Below are positions 8,368 to 47,361 of a stretch of 64,000 nt of DNA, piece after piece. Every line of letters starts with the position of its first letter. Position 1 is the first letter of the stretch. Origin of the DNA: an uncultured bacterium. Lineage in GTDB: Bacteria > Patescibacteriota > Patescibacteriia > SG8-24 > DYFX01. The stretch covers positions 57,988 through 121,987 of the forward strand of contig CALCDZ010000001.1 of the NCBI GenBank assembly GCA_937900255.1, written 5' to 3'. The translations under genes and the position numbers were made by a program. A model generated the notes under the pieces. The model saw nothing but the letters and a program-made list of their open reading frames with translations, ran no database searches and was not told the DNA's origin.

Positions 8368-8404
8368 TCGGGTCCGTCCCATCCGTGACGGTCTTGCGCG
8401 CGAG

Positions 8405-8415
8405 TGTGCTATACT
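8405..8415 (+). promoter_or_regulatory. extended -10 (TGTGCTATACT) upstream of pilM
   Basis: TGn plus TATACT, 26 nt upstream of the pilM ATG. The same TATACT hexamer recurs before rnhA (323-328), the third pilin (16116-16121) and pgi (57362-57367). Confidence 0.4.
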
Positions 8416-8440
8416 CTTTGGGAATCCACATACGGAGGCT

Positions 8441-9499
8441 ATGGCGTTTCTTGCCCGATCAAAACCCAGCTATCTCGGCATCGACTTCGGCGCGGGCGGC
8501 ATCAAGCTCGTCGAGTTGATGAACGAGAAAGGACGGGCGCGCCTCGTCACCTACGCGTTCATCGAGCGCCCGGTGGCCGAAATGCCGCACGGTTACGTCG
8601 ACGATCCGACCGCGACGGCGGAGTTGCTGAAGAAGATGCTCAAGAAGGCGAAGACGACGACGAGAAAGGCCGTGTCGGCCCTGCCGATCGCCTCGGTCTT
8701 CAGTTCCATCATCAGCGTCCAGAAGTCCTCGAAACGGGAAGAACTGGAACAATCCGTCCAATACCAGGCCAAGAAGCTGATTCCGCTGCCGCTTGAAGAG
8801 ATGTCGGTCGACTGGAAACCGCTCGCGGCGCCCTCGCAGGATCCCGAGGAGAAATATCTCCAGGTGCTGCTGACGGGAGCGGCCAAGACGCTGATCGGGA
8901 AGTATACCGGCATTTTCGCGGCGGCCGGACTCGAACTGCTCAGTCTCGAGACGGAGGCGCTGGCGATGATCCGTTCCCTGATCGGGCGCGACCGTTCGCC
9001 GACGCTGGTGCTCGATATCGGGACCGTCCGGACGAACATCCTGATCGTCGAGAATGGCATCCCGCTCGTCAGCCGGAGCGTCGCGCAAGGGGGGGCGACC
9101 GTCACCAGGGAAATGTCTTCGGCGTTGGGCGTGCCCGAAGACCAGGCGGAGAGCATGAAGATCGACGCCTCCGCGATGGCGGCGATGTACGAAAACGGTT
9201 TCCCCAAGCTGTTCGAAAACGCGTTGGCTCCGATCCTTTCGGAACTCACGTATTCGACCAACCTGTTCCTCGGGCAGAAGGCCAACGAGAACAAGCGTCT
9301 GGACAAGATCATCCTGACCGGCGGCGGCGCCCTGCTGCCGCAATTGGCGGATCATCTTTCCAAGGCGATGAATCTGCGCGTCTATATCGGCGATCCTTGG
9401 GCCCGGGTCGTCTACCCGGAGGCCTTGCGTCCCGTGCTCAACCAGATCGGGCCGCGGTTCGCGGCTGCGGTCGGTTTGGCGATGCGCGACATCGATTGA
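8441..9499 (+). CDS. pilM: type IV pilus assembly ATPase-like protein PilM
   Basis: MAFLARSKPSYLGIDFGAGGIKLVEL... actin-like fold typical of PilM. RBS GGAGG at 8435-8439. Extended -10 TGTGCTATACT at 8405-8415. Confidence 0.85.
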   Translation: MAFLARSKPSYLGIDFGAGGIKLVELMNEKGRARLVTYAFIERPVAEMPHGYVDDPTATAELLKKMLKKAKTTTRKAVSALPIASVFSSIISVQKSSKREELEQSVQYQAKKLIPLPLEEMSVDWKPLAAPSQDPEEKYLQVLLTGAAKTLIGKYTGIFAAAGLELLSLETEALAMIRSLIGRDRSPTLVLDIGTVRTNILIVENGIPLVSRSVAQGGATVTREMSSALGVPEDQAESMKIDASAMAAMYENGFPKLFENALAPILSELTYSTNLFLGQKANENKRLDKIILTGGGALLPQLADHLSKAMNLRVYIGDPWARVVYPEALRPVLNQIGPRFAAAVGLAMRDID

Positions 9500-9500
9500 T

Positions 9501-10418
9501 ATGGACGACATCAACCTGCTCACGGGCGCTCATGCGCCGAAAGAAACCAAATCCGGCGTCCGTCCTTCTCCGACTCCGAGCGAGGATGAAATGGCCCTGC
9601 ATGTGCCGGAACCTGATCCTGGCGCGCCCGAACCTCCACCCGCCGATTTCCTGAAGCCCGAATCCGCCATATCCGGAAAAAAAAAGGAGCCTGATGCCCC
9701 CGCGGCGACCGTGCGCGAACCCGCTCTGGCGCGACCGTCCGTGAAGATGTCCGAACCGGCCGTGGCTGCCTCCGTACCGCCCATCGAAGAAGCCGGCGGA
9801 GGGACGCTGCGGGTAAGCCTGATCACGACCGGATCCGAAGCCGGTTTCTCGGAAATCGCGCTCAATCGGCGTCTCAGGTCTTTTGCCTTGGTCGGCGTGG
9901 CGGGACTTCTCGTCGATGCGCTGATTTTCGGCGGCCTGACCTTCCGACAGATCCAGGTGGAAGCACGGAACGCCGATATCGATCGTCAGGTGAAGGACGT
10001 CGATGCGCAGATCGCCGCGCGCGAAAAGGCGCTTTTCCCGGCGCGGGATTTCCAACAGTTGATCCGCGCCGAACAGTCGGTGCTGGAGAACCACGCGCAT
10101 TGGAGCGGGGTCCTCAGGCTCCTTGAGGAAACGGCCTTGCCGCAGGTGCAGTTCGGCGGGCTGTCCGGAGCGGAATCGGGTACCCTTAACTTCGAGGTCT
10201 TCGCCCGCGACTACACGACGCTGGCGAAACAGATCGTGGCGTTCCGCCAGGATTCCAGGGTGAGGAAGGTCGTCTCGGGGACGGCCTCCGCGGATTTCGG
10301 GGAAAACGACCTGCTGAAAGGCGTCCGTGCGGAGATGACCTTGACCGTCGACCCCGACGTCTTCAAATACGCGCCGGAACGCGAGATCACCGGATCCGCC
10401 ACGGCCACGACATCCTGA
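9501..10418 (+). CDS. pilN: PilN-like pilus assembly protein with a long Pro/Ala-rich N-terminal insertion
   Basis: Starts MDDINLLTG (PilN-type INLL motif), has a single TM (FALVGVAGLLVDALIFGGL) then a coiled region. Lies immediately after pilM. Confidence 0.7.
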   Translation: MDDINLLTGAHAPKETKSGVRPSPTPSEDEMALHVPEPDPGAPEPPPADFLKPESAISGKKKEPDAPAATVREPALARPSVKMSEPAVAASVPPIEEAGGGTLRVSLITTGSEAGFSEIALNRRLRSFALVGVAGLLVDALIFGGLTFRQIQVEARNADIDRQVKDVDAQIAAREKALFPARDFQQLIRAEQSVLENHAHWSGVLRLLEETALPQVQFGGLSGAESGTLNFEVFARDYTTLAKQIVAFRQDSRVRKVVSGTASADFGENDLLKGVRAEMTLTVDPDVFKYAPEREITGSATATTS

Positions 10419-10428
10419 TGACTCTCCC

Positions 10429-11001
10429 GTGATTACCCTGACGAGAAGCAAAAGCGCGGTCTGGATCGCCCGGCATCTCCTGGTTTCCTGCCTGGTCCTT
10501 TTCTTGGTGCTGCTCGCATTGGGGTACGCATTTCTCTTCCGTCCCCGGATCGCCGCCGTCGTGGCTGCGGACCGCACCGCGCTCCTGGATGAGGAGCGCC
10601 GTTCGAAACAGGCATACCTGGCGAAGCTCGACGAGCTCGGGAAGCGCTACGACGCGTTCGACCATGAAGACGTCGATCGCGTCCGGAAGATGATCCCCGC
10701 CGATGAAGACGTTCCGGGGCTCCTGGCGATGCTCGAGGCTTCCGCCGTCGCGAGCGACGTCCAACTGACCGCCATCAACTTCGCCGCCAGCGACACGACC
10801 GGGTTGCCCGGCATCCAAGGGCTTTCGGCCGTCAACGTTTCCGTTTCCATCCAGCATGGCGACTACGGGCGTTTCAAGCTGTTCCTCGACGCGCTTGAAT
10901 CCAACCTGCGCATCTTCGACGTGCGCAGCGCCAGCATCAACCCGGGTTCCGCCACCTACTCCCTGACCATCCGCACCTATATTTGGGGTAAGCTCACATG
11001 A
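10429..11001 (+). CDS. pilO: PilO-like pilus assembly protein
   Basis: GTG start. N-terminal TM, then a coiled-coil, then a PilO-like C-terminal domain. Position between pilN and pilB. Confidence 0.65.
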   Translation: MITLTRSKSAVWIARHLLVSCLVLFLVLLALGYAFLFRPRIAAVVAADRTALLDEERRSKQAYLAKLDELGKRYDAFDHEDVDRVRKMIPADEDVPGLLAMLEASAVASDVQLTAINFAASDTTGLPGIQGLSAVNVSVSIQHGDYGRFKLFLDALESNLRIFDVRSASINPGSATYSLTIRTYIWGKLT

Positions 11002-19230: not shown

Positions 19231-22160
<2,930 letters not shown>

Positions 22161-33329: not shown

Positions 33330-33404
33330 TCCGAGGTAGCTCAGCGGTAGAGCAGTGGACTGTTAATCCATTGGTCCTGGGTTCGAATCCCAGCCTCGGA
33401 GCCA
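33330..33404 (+). tRNA. tRNA-Asn (anticodon GTT), CCA encoded
   Basis: TCCGAGGTAGCTCAGCGGTAGAGCAGTGGACTGTTAATCCATTGGTCCTGGGTTCGAATCCCAGCCTCGGAGCCA. Acceptor TCCGAGG/CCTCGGA, anticodon loop CTGTTAA, T-loop TTCGAAT. Confidence 0.85.
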
Positions 33405-33441
33405 TGAGCAGGCGTGTGGGGCGACCCACGTGCTTGGTCAA
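33394..33441 (+). repeat. 48-bp direct repeat copy 1 (tRNA-Asn 3' end plus 37 nt downstream)
   Basis: cctcggagccatgagcaggcgtgtggggcgacccacgtgcttggtcaa. Copy 2 at 35157-35204 is identical except for one mismatch. Confidence 0.75.
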
Positions 33442-33443
33442 AA

Positions 33444-33478
33444 GCCAGCCAAAAAATTGGCTGGCTTTTGTGTTTTTT
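33444..33478 (+). terminator. rho-independent terminator after tRNA-Asn
   Basis: GCCAGCCAA-aaaa-TTGGCTGGC hairpin followed by TTTTGTGTTTTTT. Confidence 0.6.
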
Positions 33479-33708
33479 AGGTCGTTCGGATTAGCGACCT
33501 GAACCAGTGTGATTTCGCATTGGAAACGCACCCACGTGGGAATCAAGAACTTTAACCTTATTTCCTGGTTCGAATCCCACGTGTTTTCACGCGCCGTCAC
33601 TGCATGACCTCGGGCGCATTGGTTGACCCAATGCATCAGAAAAGCTACTCTTAAAGGAGGATTTCCAACGTAATTCGATATAGCACCTATTTTGCAAATG
33701 ATAATGTT

Positions 33709-34305
33709 ATGAAGCGAGCATATATTTTGCTGCTTGTCGTTACGTATAGCCTTGGACTGATCGGGGTGACATCCTGGTTTTGGTTGCGGCAAAATCGGAA
33801 TAATCAAACCGGATCTTCCTGCTTCGACTCCGCGATTTTTTGCAGGCCCGCGGAATACATGGCGGAGGACGGCATCGTTTATGCTCATCTGCGTCGGGGC
33901 GAAGAGGAGGCAATGATTGAACGTATCCGCGAGTATTACACTGCAGACTATCGCAAGACGCTACCTAAGAAGTTCGAAGCGGAATTGACCTCTGCCGATA
34001 CTCCTCAGGAAAAGCAAAAGTACGCAGACGCCCTTGCGTCCCTGAAAAAGTGGATTGACGTGGATACGTCCTTTAGCGCGCCTCGTACTTATAAGGACTT
34101 GGACGGCGTCGTGGCTGTGGTCACGGGCGCCTCGGCATTCGTACCGGGCGTAGGATACGTTGAGTCGAGAGCTAACGTTTTTTTCTTCCGCCGCGATGAT
34201 ACGTCGTACCGGCTCGCGGCTGTCACGCCCGTCGGGGAAGATGCAAGGACGTATGAATCGGCGCCGGTCGACATGTTCAAGAGGGGTGTGGGGGCTATAG
34301 AATAG
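33709..34305 (+). CDS. hypothetical membrane-anchored protein (island cargo)
   Basis: 198 aa with an N-terminal TM helix. It sits in an AT-richer segment and is convergent with the CHAP-like gene. Confidence 0.5.
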   Translation: MKRAYILLLVVTYSLGLIGVTSWFWLRQNRNNQTGSSCFDSAIFCRPAEYMAEDGIVYAHLRRGEEEAMIERIREYYTADYRKTLPKKFEAELTSADTPQEKQKYADALASLKKWIDVDTSFSAPRTYKDLDGVVAVVTGASAFVPGVGYVESRANVFFFRRDDTSYRLAAVTPVGEDARTYESAPVDMFKRGVGAIE

Positions 34306-34360
34306 CTTACCGAACAAAAAAGAGGCATTCTGACAGTGGATGCCTCTGATGATCTCGATC

Positions 34361-35041
34361 CTAGTACGTGTACGTGGCCTTGAGCCTGAATCCCTGGAAG
34401 ATGACGTTGGGGAAATAGTTCTGCCGTACCTGCCTGAGTGACATGTCGCCACAACGATTCGTCGTGTGCGCGGCGAGCCAGACGTCGTCCCCGTTTTGTC
34501 CCGTCACGAAGTAGGCGTGATCCCAGCTGCCGTCTCCGGTCCAGTCCGCTAGGATCACATCCCCGGCATAGAAGCGCGGAATGGTCGAGAGGCTCTGTGG
34601 AATGGACACGGCGCCATATGTCCTTCCGGAGTTAAGCATGAAGGTGCGGAACTCGCTGACACCGGCCCAGGAGTTGCTTCGGTTGTGATCACCGGCGCTG
34701 AGGTAGTACCAGGCATCGCTACACCACCAACACGTTCCGCCGACCGGCTGCCAACCGCCGAATGCGAGTGCTTGAGACACGAAGTTGGTGCAGTCGCTTG
34801 AGTATGCCTCGTAAGCCTTGTTGTACCCAGTGGTGAGTGACGTGTTGGTTATTCCGCAGTAGTGCAGCGCGTACGTGACTGCGGAACTCGCGGAATAGGT
34901 GCCGGTCGTGACCGACTGCACCACGGACCCCGTGTCGCTGCCGTCGCTGTCTCCGGACGTCGAGGCGTCCATGTCGGCAACGCACGACATCGATACCGAT
35001 CCAATGAGCGCGAAGACCAAAAGAGCTGTTCCTAGTCGCAT
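34361..35041 (-). CDS. secreted CHAP/NlpC-P60-like cysteine amidase (putative peptidoglycan hydrolase)
   Basis: Signal peptide MRLGTALLVFALIGSVSMSC. Cys motif SDCTNFVSQALAFGGW and downstream His GSWDHAYFV give the papain-fold Cys/His arrangement. RBS GGAAGAGGA before ATG 35041; an alternative start is at 35059. Confidence 0.55.
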   Translation of the reverse strand: MRLGTALLVFALIGSVSMSCVADMDASTSGDSDGSDTGSVVQSVTTGTYSASSAVTYALHYCGITNTSLTTGYNKAYEAYSSDCTNFVSQALAFGGWQPVGGTCWWCSDAWYYLSAGDHNRSNSWAGVSEFRTFMLNSGRTYGAVSIPQSLSTIPRFYAGDVILADWTGDGSWDHAYFVTGQNGDDVWLAAHTTNRCGDMSLRQVRQNYFPNVIFQGFRLKATYTY

Positions 35042-35156
35042 CTGTCCTCTTCCTTTCATGCAATGCCATCGACACTATGTCGATGCGGGAGGAGACTAGC
35101 ACGCGGTTGGCGTTGGCGTCAACCGTGCCTAGGGACTCCAGTGGGAATCGCTACCT

Positions 35157-35204
35157 GGGAGCCATGAGCAGGCGTGTGGGGCGACCCACGTGCTTGGTCA
35201 ATAG
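35157..35204 (+). repeat. 48-bp direct repeat copy 2 (att-like duplicate of the tRNA-Asn 3' end)
   Basis: cctgggagccatgagcaggcgtgtggggcgacccacgtgcttggtcaa, preceded by a degenerate T-arm-like gggaatcgctacc. Confidence 0.75.
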
Positions 35205-35250
35205 ATCATCAAATCATTGGTGGGCTGTTGACTGATAGCAACACGAGTCT

Positions 35251-35847
35251 ATGTGGTTCCACAAGGAGGAAAACCAAATAGATAAAATGTCAAAAGTTTT
35301 TATTGACGAATTTCCTTCTTGGGCGATTAAGCACTCGGCCAAATTGATTTCGGAACTTAAGGAATCACGAAACGAGTATGAGAAGAGTTGGGCCAATCTT
35401 CTCAAGGAACAAAATGCACTTGGAGATACTCTAATTGATTATTTTACGGCCGCGCACGCCATCTACATCAATTCACTGCCTGATGCTTATATTCAATTAT
35501 TGGGAGGTGGCAAAAAAATTGCATCAGCGCTCTCCCTGTGGCCAAGTCGATCCCAAAACTTTTTCCTAATAGCATCGAAGTTCCATCAAAAAGTTTCGTC
35601 TGATGTAGGTCGCGGCGGCAAGAGTTCACTGGTTGAATCATTTGAAAAAGTGTTTTCAAGCGGTGGAAATCTTGAACCCTTGGCTGTGCACATCAGCACT
35701 GCAATTGCGCATTCAATTTCCCAAGAAATGGGCGTGGACACAGATGACCCATTTTCAGCTGCAGGCCTATACTCAACTCTTTTTCGATTATCGCAGGAGC
35801 AACTGGAGTGGGTTTCCAGCCACATTATCAAGCGGGATGCCCGTTGA
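35251..35847 (+). CDS. hypothetical all-alpha protein, low-GC orphan gene
   Basis: 198 aa with markedly AT-rich coding sequence. Lies between the tRNA-end repeat (35157-35204) and the R-M flanking repeat (35935). No family recognised. Confidence 0.5.
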   Translation: MWFHKEENQIDKMSKVFIDEFPSWAIKHSAKLISELKESRNEYEKSWANLLKEQNALGDTLIDYFTAAHAIYINSLPDAYIQLLGGGKKIASALSLWPSRSQNFFLIASKFHQKVSSDVGRGGKSSLVESFEKVFSSGGNLEPLAVHISTAIAHSISQEMGVDTDDPFSAAGLYSTLFRLSQEQLEWVSSHIIKRDAR

Positions 35848-35934
35848 GACCCAAGTACGGCAGTGGCCCACAAATTGACCCCTTCAAAAGCCCTAAGGTG
35901 CCCACAGGAATTGGGCACCAGACCCACCAGCGGA

Positions 35935-36040
35935 GCCAGCAAGACCCATCACGCAAGTGGCGGGTCTTTGCTTTCCGTAAGTCGATTTCCCTTTGGGGGT
36001 GTCGTCTGCTAAAATTGGTCAACATCAGCCAAGGCCGCCT
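35935..36040 (+). repeat. ~105-bp imperfect direct repeat, copy A (immediately upstream of hsdM)
   Basis: gccagcaagacccatcacgcaagtggcgggtctttgctttccgtaagtcgatttccctttgggggtgtcgtctgctaaaattggtcaacatcagccaagg... is about 90% identical to copy B. Confidence 0.75.
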
Positions 36041-36070
36041 CTTTTTTGCTGAAATCAGCGACATACCGCT

Positions 36071-37522
36071 ATGTTCGAGCAAGCCTTCAAGAACATCGAC
36101 GACATCCTCCGCACGGATTCCGGTTCGGCTACGGAGCTGGACTACGTGGAGCAGACTTCCTGGATCATTTTCCTGAAGTACCTGCATGACCTGGAGCTCG
36201 AGAACGCGAAGAAGGCGGAGCTCTCCGGCAAGAAGCACGAGCATACCTTTGAACCGAAGTTCCGCTGGGATACCTGGGCCTGCCCACGGACACCCGACGG
36301 CAAGATCGACCACCATAAAGCGCTCGACGGTAAGGACCTCAAGGAGTTCGTCGACGAAAAGCTTTTCCCGTACCTCAAGAAGTTCAAGAGCGCAGATCCG
36401 GACACCGTCGAATACAAAGTCGGTGAGATCTTCAGCGAACTCAAGAATAAAATCACGAGCGGCTACAAGCTCCGCGAGATTTTGAACATCGTCTGCGATT
36501 TGCACTTCCAGCGTAGCGAGGAGAAGCATGAGCTCTCGCATCTGTACGAGGCCCGAATCGCCAAGATGGGCAACGCGGGACGGAACGGCGGCGAGTACTA
36601 CACGCCTCGCCCCCTCATCCGCACCATCGTGCAAGTGGTCAGGCCTGAAATCGGCGACAAGATCTACGACGGCGCCTGCGGCTCAGCCGGCTTCCTGGTC
36701 GAGGCCTTCAAGTACCTGACGGAAAACAGCGCCAAGCTCTCCACGGCCGAAATGCGCACGCTCCAGACCAAGACCTTCTACGGCAAGGAGATCAAGTCCT
36801 TGGCCTACATCATCGGCGTGATGAACATGATCCTGCACGGGGTCGAGGCGCCGCACATCCGGCACATGGACACGCTGTCCCAGAACGTCAACGACATCCA
36901 GGAGAAGGACCGCTTCGAGGTCATCCTGGCCAACCCGCCGTTCGGCGCCGGTATCGGCAAGGAAGTCCAGCAGAACTTCCCGATCAAGACCGGCGAGACG
37001 GCCTACCTGTTCCTCCAGCACTTCATCAAGAGCCTCAAGGCCGGCGGCCGGGCGGGCATCGTCATCAAGAACACCTTCCTTTCCAACACCGATGACGCCT
37101 CCGTGCGCCTGCGCAGGCACTTGCTTGAGAGCTGCAATCTCCACACCGTGCTGGACTTGCCGGGCGGCGTCTTTTCAGGCGCTGGGGTGAAAACTGTGGT
37201 GCTGTTCTTCGAGAAAGGCGCGCCCACCAAGAAGGTCTGGTACTACCAGCTCAAGCTCGACCGCAATCTCGGCAAGACCAACCCGATCAACGAGAAGGAT
37301 CTGGCGGACTTCGTGAAGCTCCAGAAGACCAAGGCCGATTCCTCCAACGCCTGGTCGGTCAAGGTTTCGGATCTCGATCAGGAAACGCTTGATTTGTCGG
37401 TGAAGAACCCTAAGGGCACCGAGACTGTCGCGCACCGCAGCCCCAAGGACATTCTCAAGGAGATGGTGAAATTGGATGCAGAGAGCGCGAAAGCGTTGGC
37501 TGGTATCAAGGGGTTGCTATGA
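36071..37522 (+). CDS. hsdM: type I restriction-modification system methyltransferase subunit
   Basis: MFEQAFKNIDDILRTDSG... N-terminus. N6-adenine MTase motif NPPFG. AdoMet motif DGACGSAGFL. Confidence 0.9.
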   Translation: MFEQAFKNIDDILRTDSGSATELDYVEQTSWIIFLKYLHDLELENAKKAELSGKKHEHTFEPKFRWDTWACPRTPDGKIDHHKALDGKDLKEFVDEKLFPYLKKFKSADPDTVEYKVGEIFSELKNKITSGYKLREILNIVCDLHFQRSEEKHELSHLYEARIAKMGNAGRNGGEYYTPRPLIRTIVQVVRPEIGDKIYDGACGSAGFLVEAFKYLTENSAKLSTAEMRTLQTKTFYGKEIKSLAYIIGVMNMILHGVEAPHIRHMDTLSQNVNDIQEKDRFEVILANPPFGAGIGKEVQQNFPIKTGETAYLFLQHFIKSLKAGGRAGIVIKNTFLSNTDDASVRLRRHLLESCNLHTVLDLPGGVFSGAGVKTVVLFFEKGAPTKKVWYYQLKLDRNLGKTNPINEKDLADFVKLQKTKADSSNAWSVKVSDLDQETLDLSVKNPKGTETVAHRSPKDILKEMVKLDAESAKALAGIKGLL

Positions 37523-38679
37523 GTGGTGAGTGGCCCACGAGAAAATTGGGCGCTGTTTTGCAGATAATCAATGGTTACGCGTTTGATTCCAAACATTTTG
37601 ATGCCACAAATGGAATGCCGCTGATTAGGATCCGTGATTTAAAATCTGGTACTCACACGGAAACGCGATTTGCAGGGGCATACGACAAAAAATATATAGT
37701 TAAAGCAGGAGATTTGCTCATTGGAATGGATGGTGAGTTTGGTTGCTACGAATGGGGTGGTGAACCCGGCTTATTAAATCAGCGAGTATGCAAGTTACAG
37801 TCGTTTGCAACATCGCTAGCGCCGCGCTTCTTATTTTACGGAGTTAACAGTTACCTTAAGGACATTGAGAATGAGACTGGATATACCACAGTAAAGCACC
37901 TGTCTTCAAAACAAATCCTCGACATCGAATTTCCAATTCCGCCGCTACCGGAGCAACGGCGGCTCATTAAGTTACTCGACCAAGCTTTTTTGGATATCGC
38001 CATCGCCAAGGCGAATGCCGAAAGGAACTTGCAAAATGCGCGCGATCTTTTTGAGAGCCGTCTCAATGAGATTTTTACCAAGCGGGGACTGGGGTGGGTG
38101 GAAAAACGGCTCGATCAGATTGGAACAACACAAACCGGTTCGACTCCGTCGACTTCCGATAAAGAAAACTACGGCAACTTCATTCCTTTTATAAAGCCGG
38201 CAGACTTTAATGAAGATGGCTCATTGAACTATGGCAATGCTGGTCTTACCGAAAAGGGATTATTGAAAGCGCGCAAAGTGCGAGCTGGATCAGTCCTAAT
38301 GGTGTGCATCGGTGCGACTATCGGGAAATGTGGTTATTGTGATCGTGATGTAACCACAAATCAGCAAGTTAACTCACTCACCCCATTCAAAGGTACTTTC
38401 TACAAGCTTGTTTATTATCAGATGCGTACCAGAGACTTTCAAAGACGCATGCTTTTGAGTTCTGCTCAGGCCACGTTGCCGATAATAAACAAGTCTAAGT
38501 GGGAGGCTTTAACAATTTTGCTGCCACAAAAGACGGGAGAACAATCACGTATCGTTATGGAGCTGGCCGGCTTGGACAAAGAAGCAGCCCGCCTCAAGTC
38601 CACCTATCAGAAAAAGCTCCACGCATTGGAAGCGCTAAAGAAATCCTTGCTCAACAAGGCTTTTCGTGGTGAGCTGTAG
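37519..38679 (+). CDS. hsdS: type I restriction-modification system specificity subunit
   Basis: 386 aa with two target-recognition-domain halves separated by conserved helical repeats. ATGA overlap with hsdM. AT-rich relative to hsdM and hsdR. Confidence 0.85.
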   Translation: MSGEWPTRKLGAVLQIINGYAFDSKHFDATNGMPLIRIRDLKSGTHTETRFAGAYDKKYIVKAGDLLIGMDGEFGCYEWGGEPGLLNQRVCKLQSFATSLAPRFLFYGVNSYLKDIENETGYTTVKHLSSKQILDIEFPIPPLPEQRRLIKLLDQAFLDIAIAKANAERNLQNARDLFESRLNEIFTKRGLGWVEKRLDQIGTTQTGSTPSTSDKENYGNFIPFIKPADFNEDGSLNYGNAGLTEKGLLKARKVRAGSVLMVCIGATIGKCGYCDRDVTTNQQVNSLTPFKGTFYKLVYYQMRTRDFQRRMLLSSAQATLPIINKSKWEALTILLPQKTGEQSRIVMELAGLDKEAARLKSTYQKKLHALEALKKSLLNKAFRGEL

Positions 38680-38685
38680 GCGCAT

Positions 38686-40989
38686 ATGAACGAAGCCGAA
38701 ACGCGCGCGGAATACGTCGACCCCAAGCTTAAGGCGAGCGGGTGGGGCGAAATCGAAGGATCGAAGGTCCTGCGCGAGTTTCGGATCACCGAGGGCAAGA
38801 TCCAGACGGGCGGCACGCGCGGGAAGCCGGAGATCGCCGATTATGTGCTGGTCTACAAGAACCGCAAGCTCGCCGTCGTCGAAGCTAAACCGGAAGGGAT
38901 GGAGGCGACGGAGGGCGCAGTCCAGGCCAAGGCCTATGCGGCGAAGCTCGGTTTGGAATACACCTACGCCACCAATGGTCGGGACATCTACGAGGTGTCG
39001 ATGAAGACCGGGCACGAAGGTGCCGTGGGCAGCTTCCCGACGCCTGACGAACTCTGGGCCCGCACCTTCGCCGAGCAGAACGCCTGGCGCGAGAAGTTCG
39101 CCGCCGTCCCGACGGAGGGCGAAAAGGGCCGCCGGTATTATCAGGAGCTGGCCATTGACAACGCGCTCGAGGCCGTGGCCGAGGGCAAGAAGCGGATCCT
39201 GGTGACCATGGCCACCGGTACCGGCAAGACGGCCGTGGCGGCGCAGTTCTCCTGGAAGCTGTTCCAGTCGCGTTGGAACCTCCGGGGCGACGGCGCGCGC
39301 CGGCCGAGGATCCTGTTCCTGGCCGACCGCAACATCCTCGCGGACCAGGCCTTCACGAACGACTTCGCGATCTTCGAGCGCGACGCCCGGGTGCGCATCA
39401 ACCCGCTCGACATCCGCAAGAAGGGCGGCGTGCCGACCGGCGGCAGCGTCTTCTTCACCATCTTCCAGACGTTCATGAGCGGGCCGGGCGATACGCCGTA
39501 CTTCGGCGAGTACCCGCCGGATTTCTTCGACCTCGTCATCATCGACGAGTGCCATCGCGGCGGCGCCAACGACGAGGGCAACTGGCGCGGCATCTTGGAA
39601 TACTTCGCCCCGGCCGTGCAGCTCGGTCTGACGGCGACGCCGAAGCGCAAGGACAACGTGGATACTTATAGATATTTCGGCGAGCCGGTCTACACGTATT
39701 CCCTCAAACAAGGCATCAATGACGGCTTCCTGACGCCGTTCAAGGTCAAGCGCATTCAGACGACGCTGGACGAGTACGTCTACACCTCGGACGACCAGGT
39801 CATCGAGGGCGAAGTCGAGGAGGGCAAGATCTACGAGGAAGTTGACTTCAACAGGATCATCTTCATCAAGGAACGCGAAGCCAAGCGCGTGCGCATCGTG
39901 CTGGACGAGATCGACCAGGACGAGAAGACGATCGTCTTCTGCGCGACCCAGGACCACGCCTTGGCCGTCCGCGACCTGATCAACCAATACAAGGACAGCC
40001 GAGACCCGAATTACTGCGTCCGCGTGACCGCCAACGACGGCGCGCGCGGCGAGCAGTTCCTGCGGGAGTTCCAGGACAACGAGAAGACCATCCCGACCGT
40101 CCTGACCACTTCGCAGAAGCTCTCGACGGGCGTGGACGCCCGCAACGTCCGCAACATCGTGCTGATGCGGCCGGTCAACTCCATGATCGAGTTCAAGCAG
40201 ATCATCGGGCGCGGCACGCGGCTTTTCGACGGCAAGGAGTATTTCACCATCTACGACTTCGTCGACGCCTATCACCACTTTTCGGACCCGGAGTGGGACG
40301 GCGAACCGATCGAGGAAACGGAAGAGAAACCCCGCCACTCCAAGGAGTCCCAAGGAGATCCCAAGAAACCGCGCCAGGTGTCCGAACAGCCGGAAGACCA
40401 GCCGGCGAAAAAGCTTCGGATCAAGTTGCGTGACGGCAAGGAACGCGAGATCCAGCACATGATCTCGACCTCGTTCTGGAGCGCCGACGGCAAACCGCTT
40501 TCGATCCAGGAGTTCATGGACAACCTGTTCGGGGCGATGCCTGAGTTCTTCAGAGACGAGGAGGAGCTCCGCAAGATCTGGTCCGACCCGCGCACGCGCC
40601 AGGCCTTCCTCGATAAGATCGCAGAACTCGGCTACGGCAAGGATGCGCTGGAGACGCTCCAGAAGATGATCGACGCTGAGGACAGTGACCTGTTCGACGT
40701 GCTTTCGTATGTCTCGTTCCTGACGCCGCCGATCACGCGCGAGGAGCGCGTCAGCCACGCGAAGGATCGCATCTACCAAGGCCTCGGCGAACTCCAGCAG
40801 GATTTCCTCGGGTTCGTCCTCGGGAAGTACGAGGAGAGCGGGGTCGACGAGCTCGGCGAGCACCAACTGCCGATCCTGCTGAACCTGAAATACCAGGCCA
40901 TCGCTGACGCCGAGCAGGCGCTCGGGAATGTCGGCACAATCCGCACGCTCTTCCTGGATCTGCAGAGGAAGCTGTATGCTAAGATGTGA
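38686..40989 (+). CDS. hsdR: type I restriction enzyme R subunit (shorter than usual at 767 aa)
   Basis: N-terminal MNEAETRAEYVDPKLKASGW, helicase motifs ATGTGKT and DECHRG, then a C-terminal helical region. Confidence 0.85.
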   Translation: MNEAETRAEYVDPKLKASGWGEIEGSKVLREFRITEGKIQTGGTRGKPEIADYVLVYKNRKLAVVEAKPEGMEATEGAVQAKAYAAKLGLEYTYATNGRDIYEVSMKTGHEGAVGSFPTPDELWARTFAEQNAWREKFAAVPTEGEKGRRYYQELAIDNALEAVAEGKKRILVTMATGTGKTAVAAQFSWKLFQSRWNLRGDGARRPRILFLADRNILADQAFTNDFAIFERDARVRINPLDIRKKGGVPTGGSVFFTIFQTFMSGPGDTPYFGEYPPDFFDLVIIDECHRGGANDEGNWRGILEYFAPAVQLGLTATPKRKDNVDTYRYFGEPVYTYSLKQGINDGFLTPFKVKRIQTTLDEYVYTSDDQVIEGEVEEGKIYEEVDFNRIIFIKEREAKRVRIVLDEIDQDEKTIVFCATQDHALAVRDLINQYKDSRDPNYCVRVTANDGARGEQFLREFQDNEKTIPTVLTTSQKLSTGVDARNVRNIVLMRPVNSMIEFKQIIGRGTRLFDGKEYFTIYDFVDAYHHFSDPEWDGEPIEETEEKPRHSKESQGDPKKPRQVSEQPEDQPAKKLRIKLRDGKEREIQHMISTSFWSADGKPLSIQEFMDNLFGAMPEFFRDEEELRKIWSDPRTRQAFLDKIAELGYGKDALETLQKMIDAEDSDLFDVLSYVSFLTPPITREERVSHAKDRIYQGLGELQQDFLGFVLGKYEESGVDELGEHQLPILLNLKYQAIADAEQALGNVGTIRTLFLDLQRKLYAKM

Positions 40990-41120
40990 CGACGTGGGTA
41001 CGATCGTCGATTGCTGATTCGCCGGAATCAATAAACCGAATCCGCCCCTGTGAGGCGGGGGAGATGGACGTACTCGGCCTGTCTCCGTATCGAGGTTTCA
41101 ACGTCCTCCACGACGTGGAA

Positions 41121-41226
41121 GCCAGCAAGACACATCACGCAAGTGGTGTGTTTTGCTTTCCATAAGTCGATTTCCCTTTGGGGGTGTCGTCTGCTAAAAT
41201 TAGTCGACATCAGCCAAGACGCATTT
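41121..41226 (+). repeat. ~105-bp imperfect direct repeat, copy B (immediately downstream of hsdR)
   Basis: gccagcaagacacatcacgcaagtggtgtgttttgctttccataagtcgatttccctttgggggtgtcgtctgctaaaattagtcgacatcagccaagac... Confidence 0.75.
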
Positions 41227-41779: not shown

Positions 41780-43219
41780 ATGTCGAACGGCGTGGCCAAG
41801 AACATCTTTCACCTGCTGACCTCCTCGGTCCTCCAAAAGGGCATCGCTTTCGTGTACTTCGCGCTCATCGCCCGTTGGGCCGGCGTCGCGCATACGGGGG
41901 CGTATTTCTTCGCCCTCTCCTGGACGTTGATGTTCACGACGATCACCGACATGGGCCTCACGCCCGTCCTGATCCGCGAATCGGCCAAAGACCACGCCAA
42001 TACCGAGAAGTTCCTGAACCAGACGCTTTCGCTCAAGCTTCCGCTCACGGCCGTGGCGGTACTCTCCGCCATCGTCGGCGCCTGGCTGTTCCATATCGAA
42101 CCGGTCACGCGTACGCTCGTCATGCTCTCCACCATCGTCATTTCGCTGGATGCCGTCTCCCTTACATTCTACGGCGTCCTGCGCGGGCACCATGTCCTGA
42201 AGCACGAAGGCCTCGGGCTGGTCATCGGCCAGTCCGTCACCATGCTCATCGGCCTCGCATCCTTGAAGCTCCACATGCCGCTCTGGGTGCTGGTCGTCGC
42301 GCTCATCGCCGGCAGTTCCTGGAACGCGCTGGCGTCCTGGTGGGTCGTGACCCGCAAGCTCCGTATCCGCGTCCGTCCGAGCTGGGACCGGAACTTCGCC
42401 CTGACGATCCTGCGTACCGCCTTCCCGTTCGCGCTCGCGGGCTTTTTCGTGAAGATCTACACCAGCGCCGACGCCGTGCTGCTCACGCACTTCCATGGAG
42501 AGGCGGCGGCCGGCCTTTACAGCGTCCCGTATAAGCTGACCTTCGCCTTCCAGTTCGTGCCAATGACGTTCACGGCGGCGTTCTACCCGGCCATGAGCCG
42601 CGCCTTCGCGACGGACAAGAAGGCGCTCGGCGATCTCCTGTACCAGGCGCTGCGGTCGCTGACGCTGATCGTCGCCCCGATCGTCTCCGGCATCGCCGCC
42701 CTGGCGCCGCAATTGGTGCAATCCGTTTTCGGCAAGGAGTACCTGCCGTCCGTCCTTGCGGTCGAGACGCTTATTTTCGTACTCGTCCCGATCTTCCTGG
42801 ATTTCCCGATCGGCTCGCTCCTGAACGCCTCCGACCGCCAGATGACGCAGACGAAACTGATGGCGGCTGCGACCGCCGTCTCGCTCGCGCTCAACCTCGC
42901 CCTCATCCGGGATTACGGCTTGGTCGGGGTCGTCGTCGCATCGATCGTCAGCCACATGGTCCTGATCGTCGGCGGCCTCATCGTCATCGGGAAGTTCCTG
43001 GAATGGCCGGCGGCCCGGTTCGCCGGGGCTGCCGTCCGCACGGGTCTGGCGGCCGGCGCGATGGCGCTCGTCGTGACGTTCACGAAGTCGCTCCTGCCTC
43101 TTCCGGCCGTGGTGTTCCTCGGTGCGCTCAGTTACCCGGCCGCTGCCTTCGCGTTCGGCGCGATCGGCGTGAAGGATCTCAAGATGCTGGCCGCGGGGGT
43201 GCTGAAGCCAAGCGCATGA
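41780..43219 (+). CDS. polysaccharide/oligosaccharide flippase (Wzx / MOP superfamily)
   Basis: 479 aa with about 12-14 TM helices. The N-terminus has the typical polysaccharide-biosynthesis-protein layout. Confidence 0.75.
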   Translation: MSNGVAKNIFHLLTSSVLQKGIAFVYFALIARWAGVAHTGAYFFALSWTLMFTTITDMGLTPVLIRESAKDHANTEKFLNQTLSLKLPLTAVAVLSAIVGAWLFHIEPVTRTLVMLSTIVISLDAVSLTFYGVLRGHHVLKHEGLGLVIGQSVTMLIGLASLKLHMPLWVLVVALIAGSSWNALASWWVVTRKLRIRVRPSWDRNFALTILRTAFPFALAGFFVKIYTSADAVLLTHFHGEAAAGLYSVPYKLTFAFQFVPMTFTAAFYPAMSRAFATDKKALGDLLYQALRSLTLIVAPIVSGIAALAPQLVQSVFGKEYLPSVLAVETLIFVLVPIFLDFPIGSLLNASDRQMTQTKLMAAATAVSLALNLALIRDYGLVGVVVASIVSHMVLIVGGLIVIGKFLEWPAARFAGAAVRTGLAAGAMALVVTFTKSLLPLPAVVFLGALSYPAAAFAFGAIGVKDLKMLAAGVLKPSA

Positions 43220-44253
43220 GACTGCTTCTCGCCACCTACGAATATCCGCCGGACAAAGGCGGCATCGCCAGTTACCTGGGCGGTCTGTTCGGTGCCATGC
43301 CCGAGCATGATGTCAGGGTCCTGAAATTGAGAATACCGGCCAGGCGGCTCGGCTGGCTCCTGCAGCTGCCGAAGCTTTGGATCGCTTCGAGATGGGCGGA
43401 CGCCGTGGTCGTCTCGCATGTGCTGCCGCTCGGCACCGCCGCGGCCTTGATCGGAAAACCGTACGCCGTCATCGTGCACGGGCTTGATTTGCGTGCGGCC
43501 GCCGCGCAGCCGCGGAAAAGACCGACGGCCGCCCGCGTGCTGAAGGCCGCAAAATTGATCGTCGCCAACAGCCGCGCGACCGCCGATGAGCTGGCGGGTT
43601 TCGGAGTGGATCCCGCATCCGCGCTCGTCGTGACGCCCTGTCCGGACCCGGAACTGGAACGGAAAGGGCTGGGCATCGATGCACGAGAGATATTCGATCT
43701 CAGCGGAAAGAAAGTACTGCTCTCGGTCGGACGTCTCGTCGGGCGCAAAGGCTTCGATCGGCTCGTCCGCCTGCTTCCGGAACTCCGCAAGGCATGCGAG
43801 GATGTGGTGCTCGTCATCGCGGGGGCGGGGCCGGAGGAGGGGAGGCTCCGCAGCGAAGCCGCCTTGTCCGGCATGGAACCCTACGTGCGCTTCGTCATCG
43901 GTCCCGACCAGGAGACGCTCGCGGCTTTGTATCGCGCCGCCGACGTCTTCGCGCTCGCGGTGCGCGCGTCGAAGGGTGACGTCGAAGGGTTCGGGATCGT
44001 CTTCCTGGAAGCGGCGCTCTTCGGCGTACCGTCCGTCGGTTCGCGGGTCGGAGGCGTGCCGGAAGCGATCGTGGATGGGCGCACCGGCCTCCTGACGGAT
44101 CCGGATTCCGAAAGCGATCTCCATGAGAAACTCCGGCGCTTGCTGAACGATGCGGACGGCGCCACGCGCCTTGGTGCGGCCGCCCGCGCCCGCGCCCTTG
44201 AAGATTTCCGGTGGCCGGAGCGGGCAGCTCGGTTGATCGAAAGGCTTTCATGA
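43216..44253 (+). CDS. glycosyltransferase family 4
   Basis: MRLLLATYEYPPDKGGIASY... plus the C-terminal EGFGIVFLEA...G.P GT4 motif. ATGA overlap with the flippase. Confidence 0.8.
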   Translation: MRLLLATYEYPPDKGGIASYLGGLFGAMPEHDVRVLKLRIPARRLGWLLQLPKLWIASRWADAVVVSHVLPLGTAAALIGKPYAVIVHGLDLRAAAAQPRKRPTAARVLKAAKLIVANSRATADELAGFGVDPASALVVTPCPDPELERKGLGIDAREIFDLSGKKVLLSVGRLVGRKGFDRLVRLLPELRKACEDVVLVIAGAGPEEGRLRSEAALSGMEPYVRFVIGPDQETLAALYRAADVFALAVRASKGDVEGFGIVFLEAALFGVPSVGSRVGGVPEAIVDGRTGLLTDPDSESDLHEKLRRLLNDADGATRLGAAARARALEDFRWPERAARLIERLS

Positions 44254-44954
44254 GACGCATTTCCGTCATCATCCCGTGCTACAACCACGCGTCTTCCATC
44301 GGGAAGTGCCTTGGGAGCGTTTTTGCGCAGACGTATCCGGAGATCGAGGTCATCGTGGTGGATGACGGGTCGACGGACGATCTCGAAACCGCCCTCAAAC
44401 CGTTCCAAGGCCGTTTCCGATTCATCCGGCAAGAGAACCGCGGCGGGCCCGCGGCGCGCAATCGCGGATTCAGAGAGAGCTCGGGCGCATTCGTCATCTT
44501 CTGCGACGCGGACATCATCTGGACCAAGGATGCGCTTTCCAGCATGATCGCGGCGCTCGATGCGCATCCGGAGGCCGCCTATGCCTATGCCTCCTTCAGG
44601 TTCGGTTGGAAGAGCTTCCGGGGGGGGTCGTTCGACTCGGAGCGCTTGAAGCGTCATAACTACATCCATACCGGTTCGCTCATCCGCAGGGAGAAGTTCC
44701 CGGGTTTCGACGAATCGCTGCGCCGCTTCCAGGATTGGGACCTATGGCTTACGATGTCCGAGAGGGGAGACGCCGGCGTCTGGATCCCGCGCGAACTCTG
44801 CCGGGTGATGACGAGGCGCGGCGGCATCTCGAGCTGGTTGCCGAAGGTCGCCTACCGCATCCCATGGGCGCGCCTGGGCTGGAAGCCCGCCCGCGTGCGC
44901 GCGTACGAGGAAGCGGCCGCCGTCATCAGGAAGAAGCATCATCTTTCGCCATGA
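44250..44954 (+). CDS. glycosyltransferase family 2
   Basis: ISVIIPCYNHA...VVDDGSTDD DxD-type GT2 N-terminus. ATGA overlap. Confidence 0.8.
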   Translation: MRRISVIIPCYNHASSIGKCLGSVFAQTYPEIEVIVVDDGSTDDLETALKPFQGRFRFIRQENRGGPAARNRGFRESSGAFVIFCDADIIWTKDALSSMIAALDAHPEAAYAYASFRFGWKSFRGGSFDSERLKRHNYIHTGSLIRREKFPGFDESLRRFQDWDLWLTMSERGDAGVWIPRELCRVMTRRGGISSWLPKVAYRIPWARLGWKPARVRAYEEAAAVIRKKHHLSP

Positions 44955-45844
44955 GCCGTCCCGCCGATCTCAGCATCATCACGGTCAATTGGAAGGTCGC
45001 CGATCTGGTCGGCGAGCTTTTGGGATCGATCCAAGCGAACCGTGAAGGCTTGTCGATCGAGATTTTCGTCGTCGACAACGATTCCGGCGACCGCATCGAG
45101 GACGTCGTCGCCGGGTTCCGCTCCCGTTCCGACATCCCCGTCACGTTCATCCGTAACGGACGGAACCTCGGTTTCGCCGCCGCCAACAATCAGGCGATCC
45201 GTCGCTCTTCCGGGCGGGTAGTCGCGCTCTTGAATCCGGACGCGCGCGTCATGAAAGGCGCCTTGAAGCGGATGGTCGAATGGATGGACGCGCACCCCCG
45301 CGTCGGCATCGCTGGTCCGCGGCTCCTCGAGACCGACGGATCGACCCAACGCTCCGTCCGCCGGGACCCGTGGTTGTCCGACCAGATCCTCATCCTGCTC
45401 AAGACGCATCATCTTTGGCCGGCCGCTCCGCCGTTCCGACGCTACTTGGCCGACGGTTTCGATTACGGCAAGGAACAGGACGTCGAGCAGCTGATGGGCG
45501 CGGCGCTCTTCATCCGTCGGGAGGTCTTCACCGGCATCGGTCTGCTCGACGAGTCGTTCTTCATCTGGTTCGAGGAGGTCGACTTCTGCAAGCGGGCTCG
45601 TGATGCCGGTTGGCGGGTGTCATACGTGCCTTCCGCCGCCGTCGTTCATCATGGGGGGGCCAGTTTCGCCAAGGCGATGACGCTCAGGAAGCAGCGGTAT
45701 TTTTCCGGCAGCATGCGAACGTACTTCAAGAAGCACCGCGGCGCATGGACCGGCGCGGTGCTGGCCTTGCCGGTCCTGCTCGGTCTTGCGGCGGCTGCCA
45801 TGCTTTCGCTATGGAACAACCTGCAAAAAAAAACGAAGGCCTGA
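44951..45844 (+). CDS. glycosyltransferase family 2
   Basis: LSIITVNWKVADL...FVVDNDSGD. ATGA overlap with the preceding GT2. Confidence 0.75.
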   Translation: MSRPADLSIITVNWKVADLVGELLGSIQANREGLSIEIFVVDNDSGDRIEDVVAGFRSRSDIPVTFIRNGRNLGFAAANNQAIRRSSGRVVALLNPDARVMKGALKRMVEWMDAHPRVGIAGPRLLETDGSTQRSVRRDPWLSDQILILLKTHHLWPAAPPFRRYLADGFDYGKEQDVEQLMGAALFIRREVFTGIGLLDESFFIWFEEVDFCKRARDAGWRVSYVPSAAVVHHGGASFAKAMTLRKQRYFSGSMRTYFKKHRGAWTGAVLALPVLLGLAAAAMLSLWNNLQKKTKA

Positions 45845-47361
45845 ACGCCTCAAGGGCCGTTTTCCTGCTCTGCGTGGCGGCTGAGCTGCTTTCTTTCCTC
45901 ACGTTCTACCGTCCCTGGCTCGCGGCCCCGTTCCTGTACGCGCTGGGTCTCGGAGCGATCGCATTGGCGTTCACGGACCTAAGGAAACTCTTTTCGGTCG
46001 TCGTGGTGGAGGCGATCATCGGCAGTCATGGGCGGCTCTTCTCCGCCGAAGTCGCAGGTTTTTCGGTCTCCGTCCGCATGGTCCTCTTCGCCGTCCTAGT
46101 CATCGGATGGGCGCTTCATACGGTTCATGGGCGTTCGCGCATCCTGCATTTCCGGCATGTCGGGATAGGCGCCCCGCTGACGCTGCTGCTTTCGGCGCTG
46201 GCGCTTGCCGCCGCACGCGGGTTGGAGCGCGGGGTGGGCGCGGCCTTTTCCGACGCGAACGGGTACGCCTTCCTTCTCATGCTGCCGATAGGCCTCGACC
46301 TGTTCGCTGGGCGCGAACCTTTCGCGAAGCTGCTCGGCGTCATGGCCGGTGCCGCGGCCTGGCTGGCGGCCAAGAGCCTGATCCTGCTCTATCTTTTTTC
46401 GCACGACTTCGGCCCGTTCCTGAAAGACCTGTTCAGATGGCAGAGAACGTACGGCCTGAGCGAGATGACGCGCCTTGCGGGGGGTGCCGTCCGTGTCTTC
46501 GCCGCTTCCGACCTCTTCCTGATCCCGGCCGTGGCCCTCGGAATCCTTCTCTCCTGGAAATTCCGGCGCCGTTGGACCTTTGCCTGGACCATCCTCGTCA
46601 CGGCCGCCTTCCTTCTCAGCCTTTCCAGAAGTTTCTGGCTCGGCATCGCGTTTTCCGCGGCGATCATGCTGCCCGCGCTCGTGAAACATGAAACCAGGCC
46701 GCTCCGGGAGATCGGGCGGCTGTCCGGGAGCGCTTTTGTCGCCCTGGCGATCGGAACGGCGCTGCTTGCCGGGCTGCTGTTCCTCCCCTCACCGAAGCGT
46801 CTTCAGGATGCCGGGGCATGGGGTGCATACGGCGGGCGCTTCCTGAACGCCTCCGACGCAGCCGTTTCCAGCCGTTGGAACATGATCGCGCCGCTCCGCC
46901 AGGCGATCTCCGTTTCACCGGTCTTCGGATCCGGTTTTGGATCGGTCATCAGCTATCAGTCGGACGATCCGCGCATGCATGACCTCTACCCGGGCGGGCG
47001 CGTCACGACCGGAGCGATCGAATGGCAGTACTTGGAAATCTGGCTGAAGACGGGACTCTTCGGCCTCTTCGCCGTCCTGTGGCTCTGGTGGCGCATCGCG
47101 ATATTCCTCTGGAAATCGATCGGGGGGGCATCACGGGAAACGGGCCGGCTCATGGCGTCAGGAGCGATGCTGTCGTTCCTCGCTTTCGTGATCGCCAACG
47201 TCTTCACCCCTTACATCAATCATCCGCTCGGATGGATGTATCTGGCACTCGTCGTCGTCGGGGCGCATGCCTACGGCGGTCACGAGGCTCCGGAGCGCGA
47301 ATTTCCGGCTAGTCCAATTCCGCGTTGGCGAAGTCAGGATAGCCGTTCAGGAAACTCTTGA
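45811..47361 (+). CDS. O-antigen ligase-like (Wzy_C) membrane protein; candidate O-oligosaccharyltransferase
   Basis: Multi-TM protein with a large loop, a Wzy_C-type layout. The ATG at 45811 overlaps the GT2 3' end; the ORF-track start at 45610 is probably too far upstream. The start is uncertain. Confidence 0.6.
   Translation: MEQPAKKNEGLNASRAVFLLCVAAELLSFLTFYRPWLAAPFLYALGLGAIALAFTDLRKLFSVVVVEAIIGSHGRLFSAEVAGFSVSVRMVLFAVLVIGWALHTVHGRSRILHFRHVGIGAPLTLLLSALALAAARGLERGVGAAFSDANGYAFLLMLPIGLDLFAGREPFAKLLGVMAGAAAWLAAKSLILLYLFSHDFGPFLKDLFRWQRTYGLSEMTRLAGGAVRVFAASDLFLIPAVALGILLSWKFRRRWTFAWTILVTAAFLLSLSRSFWLGIAFSAAIMLPALVKHETRPLREIGRLSGSAFVALAIGTALLAGLLFLPSPKRLQDAGAWGAYGGRFLNASDAAVSSRWNMIAPLRQAISVSPVFGSGFGSVISYQSDDPRMHDLYPGGRVTTGAIEWQYLEIWLKTGLFGLFAVLWLWWRIAIFLWKSIGGASRETGRLMASGAMLSFLAFVIANVFTPYINHPLGWMYLALVVVGAHAYGGHEAPEREFPASPIPRWRSQDSRSGNS

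Follow-up and report, generated by a model that had tools for sequence, protein, structure and literature searches.

Is a run of nine adenines at the junction of two surface-glycan genes an evolved switch, or is it coding sequence that happens to be slippery? The question is raised by a locus in a 64,000-nucleotide (nt) stretch of DNA from an uncultured bacterium of the Patescibacteriota (GTDB lineage Patescibacteriia; SG8-24; DYFX01), comprising positions 57,988 to 121,987 of contig CALCDZ010000001.1 in assembly GCA_937900255.1. This whole stretch is referred to below as the window, and coordinates are those of the window. The last two genes of an envelope-glycan operon, encoding a family-2 glycosyltransferase (GT2b) and a membrane protein of the Wzy_C/O-antigen-ligase family (Wzy_C), meet at an A9 homopolymer, which an earlier note, made from the sequence alone, had described as a classical phase-variation arrangement. 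The best explanation of the data presented here is that the A9 is ordinary, if fragile, coding sequence and not an evolved switch. We consider it moderately likely that the run encodes Lys-Lys in both frames of a conserved overlap whose genes are translationally coupled, that it is specific to this lineage, and that it is a latent slippage site only.

The A9 tract in the GT2b/Wzy_C overlap

The tract occupies positions 45825–45833 on the plus strand (AAAAAAAAA), exactly where the earlier note had placed it, and is an uninterrupted run of nine A's with a C on either side. It lies in the 34-nt out-of-frame overlap (45811–45844, plus strand) between the GT2b gene (44951–45844, plus strand; 297 amino acids (aa); Pfam PF00535, E = 1e-22) and the Wzy_C gene (45811–47361, plus strand; 516 aa; assigned by Pfam), the latter being in the −1 frame relative to GT2b. 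Across the tract, the GT2b frame reads CAA AAA AAA ACG AAG GCC TGA, corresponding to the C-terminus ...NNLQKKTKA and a TGA stop codon at 45842–45844, and the Wzy_C frame reads ATG GAA CAA CCT GCA AAA AAA AAC GAA GGC, corresponding to the N-terminus MEQPAKKNEG. The A9 thus codes for Lys-Lys in both frames, touching codons 6–8 of the Wzy_C gene with the two lysines at codons 6–7, and can be read as an A_AAA_AAA heptamer in both frames, including the zero frame of GT2b. Both peptides and the Lys-Lys coding in the two frames had been quoted correctly. The start of the ligase-like gene had also been placed upstream of the tract, which agrees with our results, although the implied position of the ATG, 45812, is one base too far 3′ (45811).

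The junction was compared with that of 19 related loci (46–67% protein identity). The Wzy_C ATG was found at the homologous position in all 19, embedded in conserved Ser-Leu-Trp codons of GT2b (..CTATGGA..), and the overlap had the same out-of-frame register throughout, with a length of 28 nt in 18 loci and 34 nt in L023. The public annotation has the same Wzy_C start (45811), and the N-termini align without gaps (MEIPARKTL.. and MEIGTRQAL.. versus MEQPAKKNE.. here). We considered the possibility that translation starts 3′ of the tract, a result that the earlier note had named, together with an invariant tract, as speaking against its proposal. The next in-frame start is a GTG at codon 22, which is not conserved and is located inside helix 1 of the predicted structure, most of which would be lost. 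A start 3′ of the tract was ruled out by the ATG kept in the 19 relatives and by the gap-free N-termini. These data document a strictly conserved out-of-frame GT2/Wzy_C overlap in a core glycan operon of Patescibacteria, with a length of 28 nt across relatives whose identity goes down to 46%.

Absence of the tract from related loci

A check for homopolymers at the same junction in relatives had been proposed along with the phase-variation idea. None of the 19 related loci has a run of at least seven bases there, and the longest run near the junction is an A6 in L012, located 3′ of the GT2 stop codon. The relatives keep the basic residues, with GT2b tails ending in K/R-K/R and Wzy_C residues 6–7 being R-K/Q, and encode them by codons of mixed purines. 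In the closest relative, L016, the sequence is ATGGAAATCCCTGCAAGGAAAACGCTGACC (GCA AGG AAA ACG), already rich in purines. From this comparison, we infer that the A9 is a derived, lineage-specific state, a few G-to-A changes away. A past one-base slip in the tract, later compensated, was also considered and then dropped; a hand alignment to L016 shifted by one base matches slightly better (7 of 14 positions versus 5 of 15 unshifted), and the MAFFT alignment is ungapped.

The origin of the tract may then be pictured as follows. In this envelope-glycan operon, which is conserved in Patescibacteria, GT2b and Wzy_C overlap out of frame, and since the Wzy_C ATG lies within Ser-Leu-Trp codons of GT2b, Wzy_C is most likely translated by coupling to GT2b. 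Both proteins would need basic residues in the shared segment: GT2b ends in a hydrophobic membrane helix followed by a basic, K/R-rich tail, and Wzy_C has R/K at positions 6–7, in what is predicted to be a disordered N-terminal tail before helix 1. (In the AlphaFold2 model, helix 1 comprises residues 3–33, and residues 1–8 are disordered, with pLDDT < 50, which suggests little constraint on their identity.) The relatives appear to meet this two-frame demand by mixed purine codons, and in the present lineage, judging from the alignment, G-to-A changes would have turned GCA AGG AAA ACG into GCA AAA AAA AAC. The A-rich version may have been mildly favoured, as the start region, which has no Shine-Dalgarno sequence, is computed to be more open. 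The slippery site would be a by-product: one-base errors in replication or transcription would lead either to no separate Wzy_C or to a GT2b–Wzy_C fusion, and slippage at the A9 would be a liability or noise, not a demonstrated form of regulation.

A Shine-Dalgarno-like GGAGG was absent upstream of all 22 gene starts examined in the window. The organism thus appears to initiate translation without Shine-Dalgarno pairing, in which case an unstructured start region probably matters. (Several junctions in the window are 4-nt ATGA overlaps.) The native tract codons rank fourth among 32 synonymous versions for lowest start-region opening energy, with a computed value of 9.9 kcal/mol, compared to 13.0 kcal/mol for the codon-usage-preferred GCC AAG AAG AAC.

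Effect of tract length and search for length variants

The effects of slippage were computed in silico for tracts of seven, eight, ten and eleven A's. With A8, the Wzy_C frame ends after 10 codons and GT2b is extended by 13 residues; A11 behaves in the same way, the Wzy_C frame ending after 10–11 codons. With A10, the Wzy_C frame read from its own ATG ends after 24 codons, and GT2b and Wzy_C are joined into an 803-aa fusion, while A7 yields a fusion of 802 aa, with the Wzy_C frame ending after 23–24 codons. Every change by a single base in either direction abolishes independent translation of Wzy_C, the reading frame being lost after 7–8 codons. The claim that a single-base slip would frameshift the ligase-like gene just after its start is therefore correct, and in silico, a length change would switch the gene on or off.

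Such length variants were not seen in public data. The gene is found on contigs from ENA (ERZ650241) and Logan (SRR6231188) and on the longer records that underlie the NCBI metagenome-assembled genome (MAG); the encoded protein is identical in each, and all public contigs therefore carry the A9. The two contigs that were retrieved (ENA and Logan) are 100% identical to the window. A homologue search against 5.8 billion clusters found nothing between 67% and 100% identity, and hence no re-called truncated or fused variant of the Wzy_C gene. The GT2b products predicted for A8, A10 and A11 were likewise missing when looked up exactly among 15 billion proteins, a search that did detect the wild-type controls; the latter belong to 90%-identity clusters with a single member each. 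The A7 fusion would have surfaced in the homologue search. Nor were there any matches in exact look-ups of the variant products for two other runs in the window (the GT2a G8 and the A9 in the pilN-position gene, see below), or in a scan of JGI metagenomes with an exact 23-nt DNA flank (0 matches). These searches are low in power, since they relied on consensus assemblies, at low coverage, of apparently one population. The tract offers a cheap read-level test of short-homopolymer stability in this lineage, with internal controls such as an A8 in ligA (see below).

Homopolymers are error-prone, and the ENA contig has a coverage of only ≈6×, so we also considered that the tract length might be a sequencing or assembly error, the true run being of different length or interrupted. 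This is extremely improbable. There is no difference between the NCBI, ENA and Logan contigs, and nine A's are the only length to yield the two-gene architecture of the relatives and the gap-free N-terminal alignment to all 19 of them. An assembly error was ruled out on these grounds.

Rarity of the tract and other homopolymers in the window

The window has a G+C content of 62%. With independent bases, 0.014 runs of at least nine A's would be expected per 64 kb, and two are observed (at 9677 and 45825). Within-gene shuffling of synonymous codons gives 0.32 expected sense-strand runs of this length per window (P = 0.03 for at least two). AAA makes up 24% of the Lys codons and GCA 7.6% of the Ala codons, and no run of at least nine was found in ≈150 kb of related loci. 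The A9 is thus unusual, though not wildly so, given a Lys-Lys-Asn peptide that follows an A-ending codon.

Lys runs have turned into long A runs in other ordinary genes of this genome. An A8 at 20699–20706 codes for PKKS in the NAD-dependent DNA ligase LigA (20085–22160; 763 bits); its presence in an essential gene shows that long A runs arise from Lys codons without a switching role. The second A9 (9677–9685) codes for GKKKE in the N-terminal part of the gene at the pilN position (9501–10418), between pilM (8321–9499) and pilO (10429–11001). A one-base slip in this tract truncates the protein at 64–80 aa, and a G7 is present at 9089 in pilM, 600 nt upstream. The type IV pilus operon to which these genes belong includes pilM, pilO, pilB, a response regulator, pilC, two prepilins and a prepilin peptidase. 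The 1474-aa open reading frame (ORF) immediately 5′ of pilM (3943–8367) had no Pfam match.

Three G runs lie within 3 kb in the glycan operon itself: a G8 at 44620–44627 in the preceding family-2 glycosyltransferase gene (GT2a), a G7 at 45653–45659 in GT2b and a G7 at 47122–47128 in Wzy_C, all of which are missing in the relatives. The G7 in GT2b falls in its conserved HHGGAS motif, which the relatives mostly write as CAC/CAT GGC GGC. A +1 slip at this G7 would likewise fuse GT2b to Wzy_C, whose frame has no stop codon from 45610 onwards.

Several of these observations weigh against ordinary coding sequence as the explanation of the tract. Under synonymous shuffling, only 0.04 runs of at least nine A's are expected in the Wzy_C gene, which makes the A9 improbable by neutral codon choice. 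The three G runs in GT2a, GT2b and Wzy_C compare with 0.62 expected from within-gene synonymous shuffles (P = 0.015), and type IV pilus or glycan genes contain six of the window's seven long runs (at least seven G/C or at least eight A/T), versus 2.7 expected (P = 0.045). The relatives, which have no A run, span 6.7–17.9 kcal/mol in start-region opening energy; since they reach similar or lower energies without it, the benefit of the A run for accessibility would be modest and not required. Finally, consensus assemblies at low coverage (≈6× for the ENA contig) cannot show minority length variants. As to the clustering, G runs are not enriched window-wide (4 observed, 5.3 expected), and long runs outside the pilus and glycan genes are depleted (4.2 expected, P = 0.059). 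The clustering is suggestive but post hoc, and could equally reflect relaxed constraint on envelope genes or selection for mutability.

Comparison with phase-variable glycan loci

In genuine phase variation, slipped-strand mispairing at the A9 during replication would reversibly switch Wzy_C off (A8, or A10 with a fusion) and on (A9). If the G8 and the two G7 runs took part, the resulting envelope-glycan variants would help an episymbiont to evade phages or to change its attachment to the host. We regard phase variation of this kind as unlikely. It would fit the position of the tract, 15 nt past a conserved start codon in a surface-glycan pathway, where each one-base change abolishes independent Wzy_C translation; the A9 is a rarity against the prediction from codon usage, the same 3 kb contain the three further G runs that the relatives lack, and pilus and glycan genes have more long runs than expected, and other genes fewer. 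The arrangement also resembles the poly-G tracts in capsule and lipooligosaccharide genes of Campylobacter jejuni, the lgt and pgl genes of Neisseria and the poly-A/C tracts of Helicobacter, in that the run is near the 5′ end of a glycan-pathway gene, a one-base change causes a frameshift, and more runs are found in the neighbouring transferase genes. However, the known phase-variable glycan genes are usually terminal-sugar transferases, whereas the tract described here is in a ligase/polymerase-type gene, and when a late step of the Wzy/WaaL type is lost, lipid-linked intermediates tend to become trapped, at a cost to the cell. Furthermore, the tracts in those organisms vary between isolates and recur in related strains, whereas the A9 is invariant in all available assemblies and, being absent from all 19 relatives, does not count as a maintained feature. 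The operon belongs to the conserved core, beside fmt and def, and the A8 in ligA again shows that such runs arise without switching. Reversible loss of function can come from runs of 7–9 bases in ordinary genes when the genome is rich in G+C, as in Mycobacterium tuberculosis, a G+C-rich organism without mismatch repair, in which a 7C run in glpK undergoes reversible frameshifting, shown experimentally and in clinical isolates.

Tract length and repair background were also compared with published data. The tracts in Campylobacter, Neisseria and Helicobacter usually consist of at least 7–8 G/C or at least 10 A/T, and PhasomeIt, used for Campylobacter phasomes, has an A/T cut-off of at least 10 (PMC6321876). 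The A9 falls below this usual poly-A/T threshold, but at 9 nt it has the length from which many bacterial genomes show selection against A/T runs (PMC1088944). Some lineages of the Candidate Phyla Radiation (CPR) lack MutS/MutL, which would raise slippage rates; these proteins are missing in Saccharibacteria and present in other CPR groups (PMC8406219). The frameshift consequence and the surface-glycan target known from phase-variable genes are both found here, but length polymorphism and maintenance in relatives are not. The interpretation in the earlier note is supported in part, but its description of the junction as a phase-variation arrangement was not supported: no homopolymer in 19 relatives, no length variant in the public assemblies or protein collections searched, and a run below the cut-off.

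If the tract were switched, it would mean that CPR/Patescibacteria rely on the same cheap, stochastic means of varying a surface glycan as host-adapted pathogens do, and it would provide a handle on which envelope polymer matters for attachment in these host-attached, phage-exposed organisms. A wider version of the idea, in which the A9, the G8/G7/G7 runs, the pilM G7 and the pilN-position A9 form a small, hypermutable “phasome” of the lineage that stochastically varies both envelope glycan and type IV pili in this ultrasmall episymbiont, seems distinctly unlikely. Repeat-driven contingency loci would then be described in the CPR for the first time; a full-text literature search for phase variation and Patescibacteria returned only four incidental co-mentions and no study.

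Possible recoding and termination at the overlap

A shift of frame could also occur during expression. A −1 ribosomal shift, or the addition of one A by RNA polymerase, would give the same 803-aa GT2b–Wzy_C fusion as the A10 tract, and we considered programmed recoding, by which the cell would deliberately make some of this fusion. The overlap does contain a slippery A_AAA_AAA in the zero frame of GT2b with Wzy_C in the matching −1 frame. Moreover, nine A's or T's is the length at which transcriptional slippage turns efficient in many bacteria, and slippage on 9A in Thermus dnaX occurs in about half of all cases (PMC1088944). As in the known 9A/9T slippage sites (Thermus thermophilus dnaX, Shigella mxiE and insertion sequence (IS) elements; PMC1088944), nine A's are in the sense strand and an added base fuses the ORFs, and as in −1 frameshifting on A_AAA_AAG/A (E. 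coli dnaX and the IS3 family), a zero-frame heptamer is followed by a gene in the −1 frame.

Several findings make programmed recoding very unlikely. In the slippage systems, either the downstream ORF lacks a start codon or the slippage product is conserved, whereas Wzy_C has its own conserved ATG and does not depend on recoding, and the run is not conserved, the relatives having the −1 overlap without the slippery site in all 19 cases. Unlike E. coli dnaX and IS3, there is no Shine-Dalgarno-like stimulator upstream of the heptamer, and no frameshift-stimulating structure was detected in the 72 nt downstream, which fold no better than shuffles (z = 0.55). Fusion after the GT2b helix may invert the topology of Wzy_C. 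Furthermore, A9 runs are not avoided in the window (2 versus 0.32 expected), which, by the logic of PMC1088944, suggests that nine A's are not strongly slippage-prone in this organism.

A natural fusion does exist in one relative. In L003 (3296–5482; protein P0018, 733 aa), GT2a is fused in frame to Wzy_C; this locus is without GT2b, and Wzy_C's own ATG is gone. Natural GT2–Wzy_C fusions thus occur in the family and are tolerated, but the one in L003 joins GT2a, which has no C-terminal membrane helix, and not GT2b.

On the opposite strand, the complementary T9 might serve as the U-tract of an intrinsic terminator for antisense transcription from the convergent def–fmt operon. A terminator scan does report a 5-bp hairpin (45851–45836, minus strand), followed by CG and the T9. 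However, the stem is weak (three G-C pairs) and lies 1.5 kb beyond the fmt stop codon, the scan is unspecific (12 sites, versus 6.6 ± 2.8 in shuffles), and the relatives do not have the site. A terminator of this kind is scarcely credible, and it was dropped as weak and misplaced.

The Wzy_C protein

The Wzy_C protein matches PF04932 with 35.4 bits (cut-off 31.7, E = 1.1e-8) over residues 261–422, and most of its homologues carry the same annotation. The AlphaFold2 model (pLDDT 80, pTM 0.83) was compared with the PDB using Foldseek, in which WaaL (7TPG) was the only match with E ≤ 0.001 (E = 7e-6, probability 1.0, TM-score 0.35–0.42), consistent with a polytopic, WaaL-like membrane fold. The fold search alone linked the protein to WaaL; it had no match when PDB sequences were searched using the family profile, or in NCBIfam. 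The label “ligase-like” is thus right at the superfamily level, and the protein is predicted to be a ligase, a polymerase or an O-oligosaccharyltransferase, an assignment made at the level of the superfamily. Invariant R, H and D columns are present in the family alignment.

The Pfam match and the multi-helix fold are shared with the WaaL/Wzy_C superfamily (O-antigen ligases, Wzy polymerases and PglL-type O-oligosaccharyltransferases), and, as in those systems, the operon also has a Wzx flippase and glycosyltransferases. In contrast, the similarity to WaaL itself is very distant (15% identity, TM-score 0.35–0.42), and Patescibacteria are without lipopolysaccharide, so that the acceptor may be a polymer, a protein or the wall. 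The C-terminal tail of Wzy_C (residues 492–516) is longer here and modeled with low confidence.

The glycan operon and its surroundings

The operon consists of five genes on the plus strand in the order wzx, GT4, GT2a, GT2b and Wzy_C. The first three, all assigned by Pfam, encode a Wzx-type flippase (Polysacc_synt, 41780–43219), a GT4-family glycosyltransferase (Glycos_transf_1, 43216–44253), which overlaps each of its neighbours by 4 nt, and the family-2 glycosyltransferase GT2a (44250–44954, 234 aa). The earlier junctions thus overlap by 4 nt and the last by 34 nt. The relatives share this gene order, followed by convergent fmt and def, which indicates a conserved core locus rather than an accessory island. 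The closest proteins come from Patescibacteria, Minisyncoccota and Paceibacter MAGs. The 3′ ends of Wzy_C and the convergent fmt overlap by 53 nt (47309–47361), versus 4 nt in the relative L015. An Rfam scan of the window detected two tRNAs only, with no match at the GT2b/Wzy_C locus. ARAGORN called a tRNA-Val (GAC) at 42628–42701, within the wzx coding region, which had no Rfam support at the gathering threshold and is probably a false positive.

Among the relatives, the GT2a homologue in L010 has an in-frame stop codon in the conserved ASF(R/K)FGWK motif (ASF*CGWK) and is possibly a pseudogene or the result of a MAG assembly error. The records of L003, L005, L009–L012 and L014 are titled “uncultured Gammaproteobacteria bacterium”, but their gene content and nearest relatives are those of Patescibacteria, and they are likely to be third-party assemblies with a wrong label.

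Upstream of the glycan operon, the window contains a low-G+C stretch (33330–41218, 49–58%), which begins at a tRNA-Asn (33330–33404). A complete type I restriction-modification system, consisting of hsdM (36071–37522), hsdS (37519–38679) and hsdR (38686–40989), is located within it; the relative L015 has no such system at the corresponding place. The system is flanked by a direct repeat of ≈100 nt (35934–36033 and 41120–41218, 89–96%), and the 3′ end of the tRNA-Asn with its flank is repeated at 35145–35230 (83%). This low-G+C region looks like a set of tandem integrated islets directly upstream of the operon.

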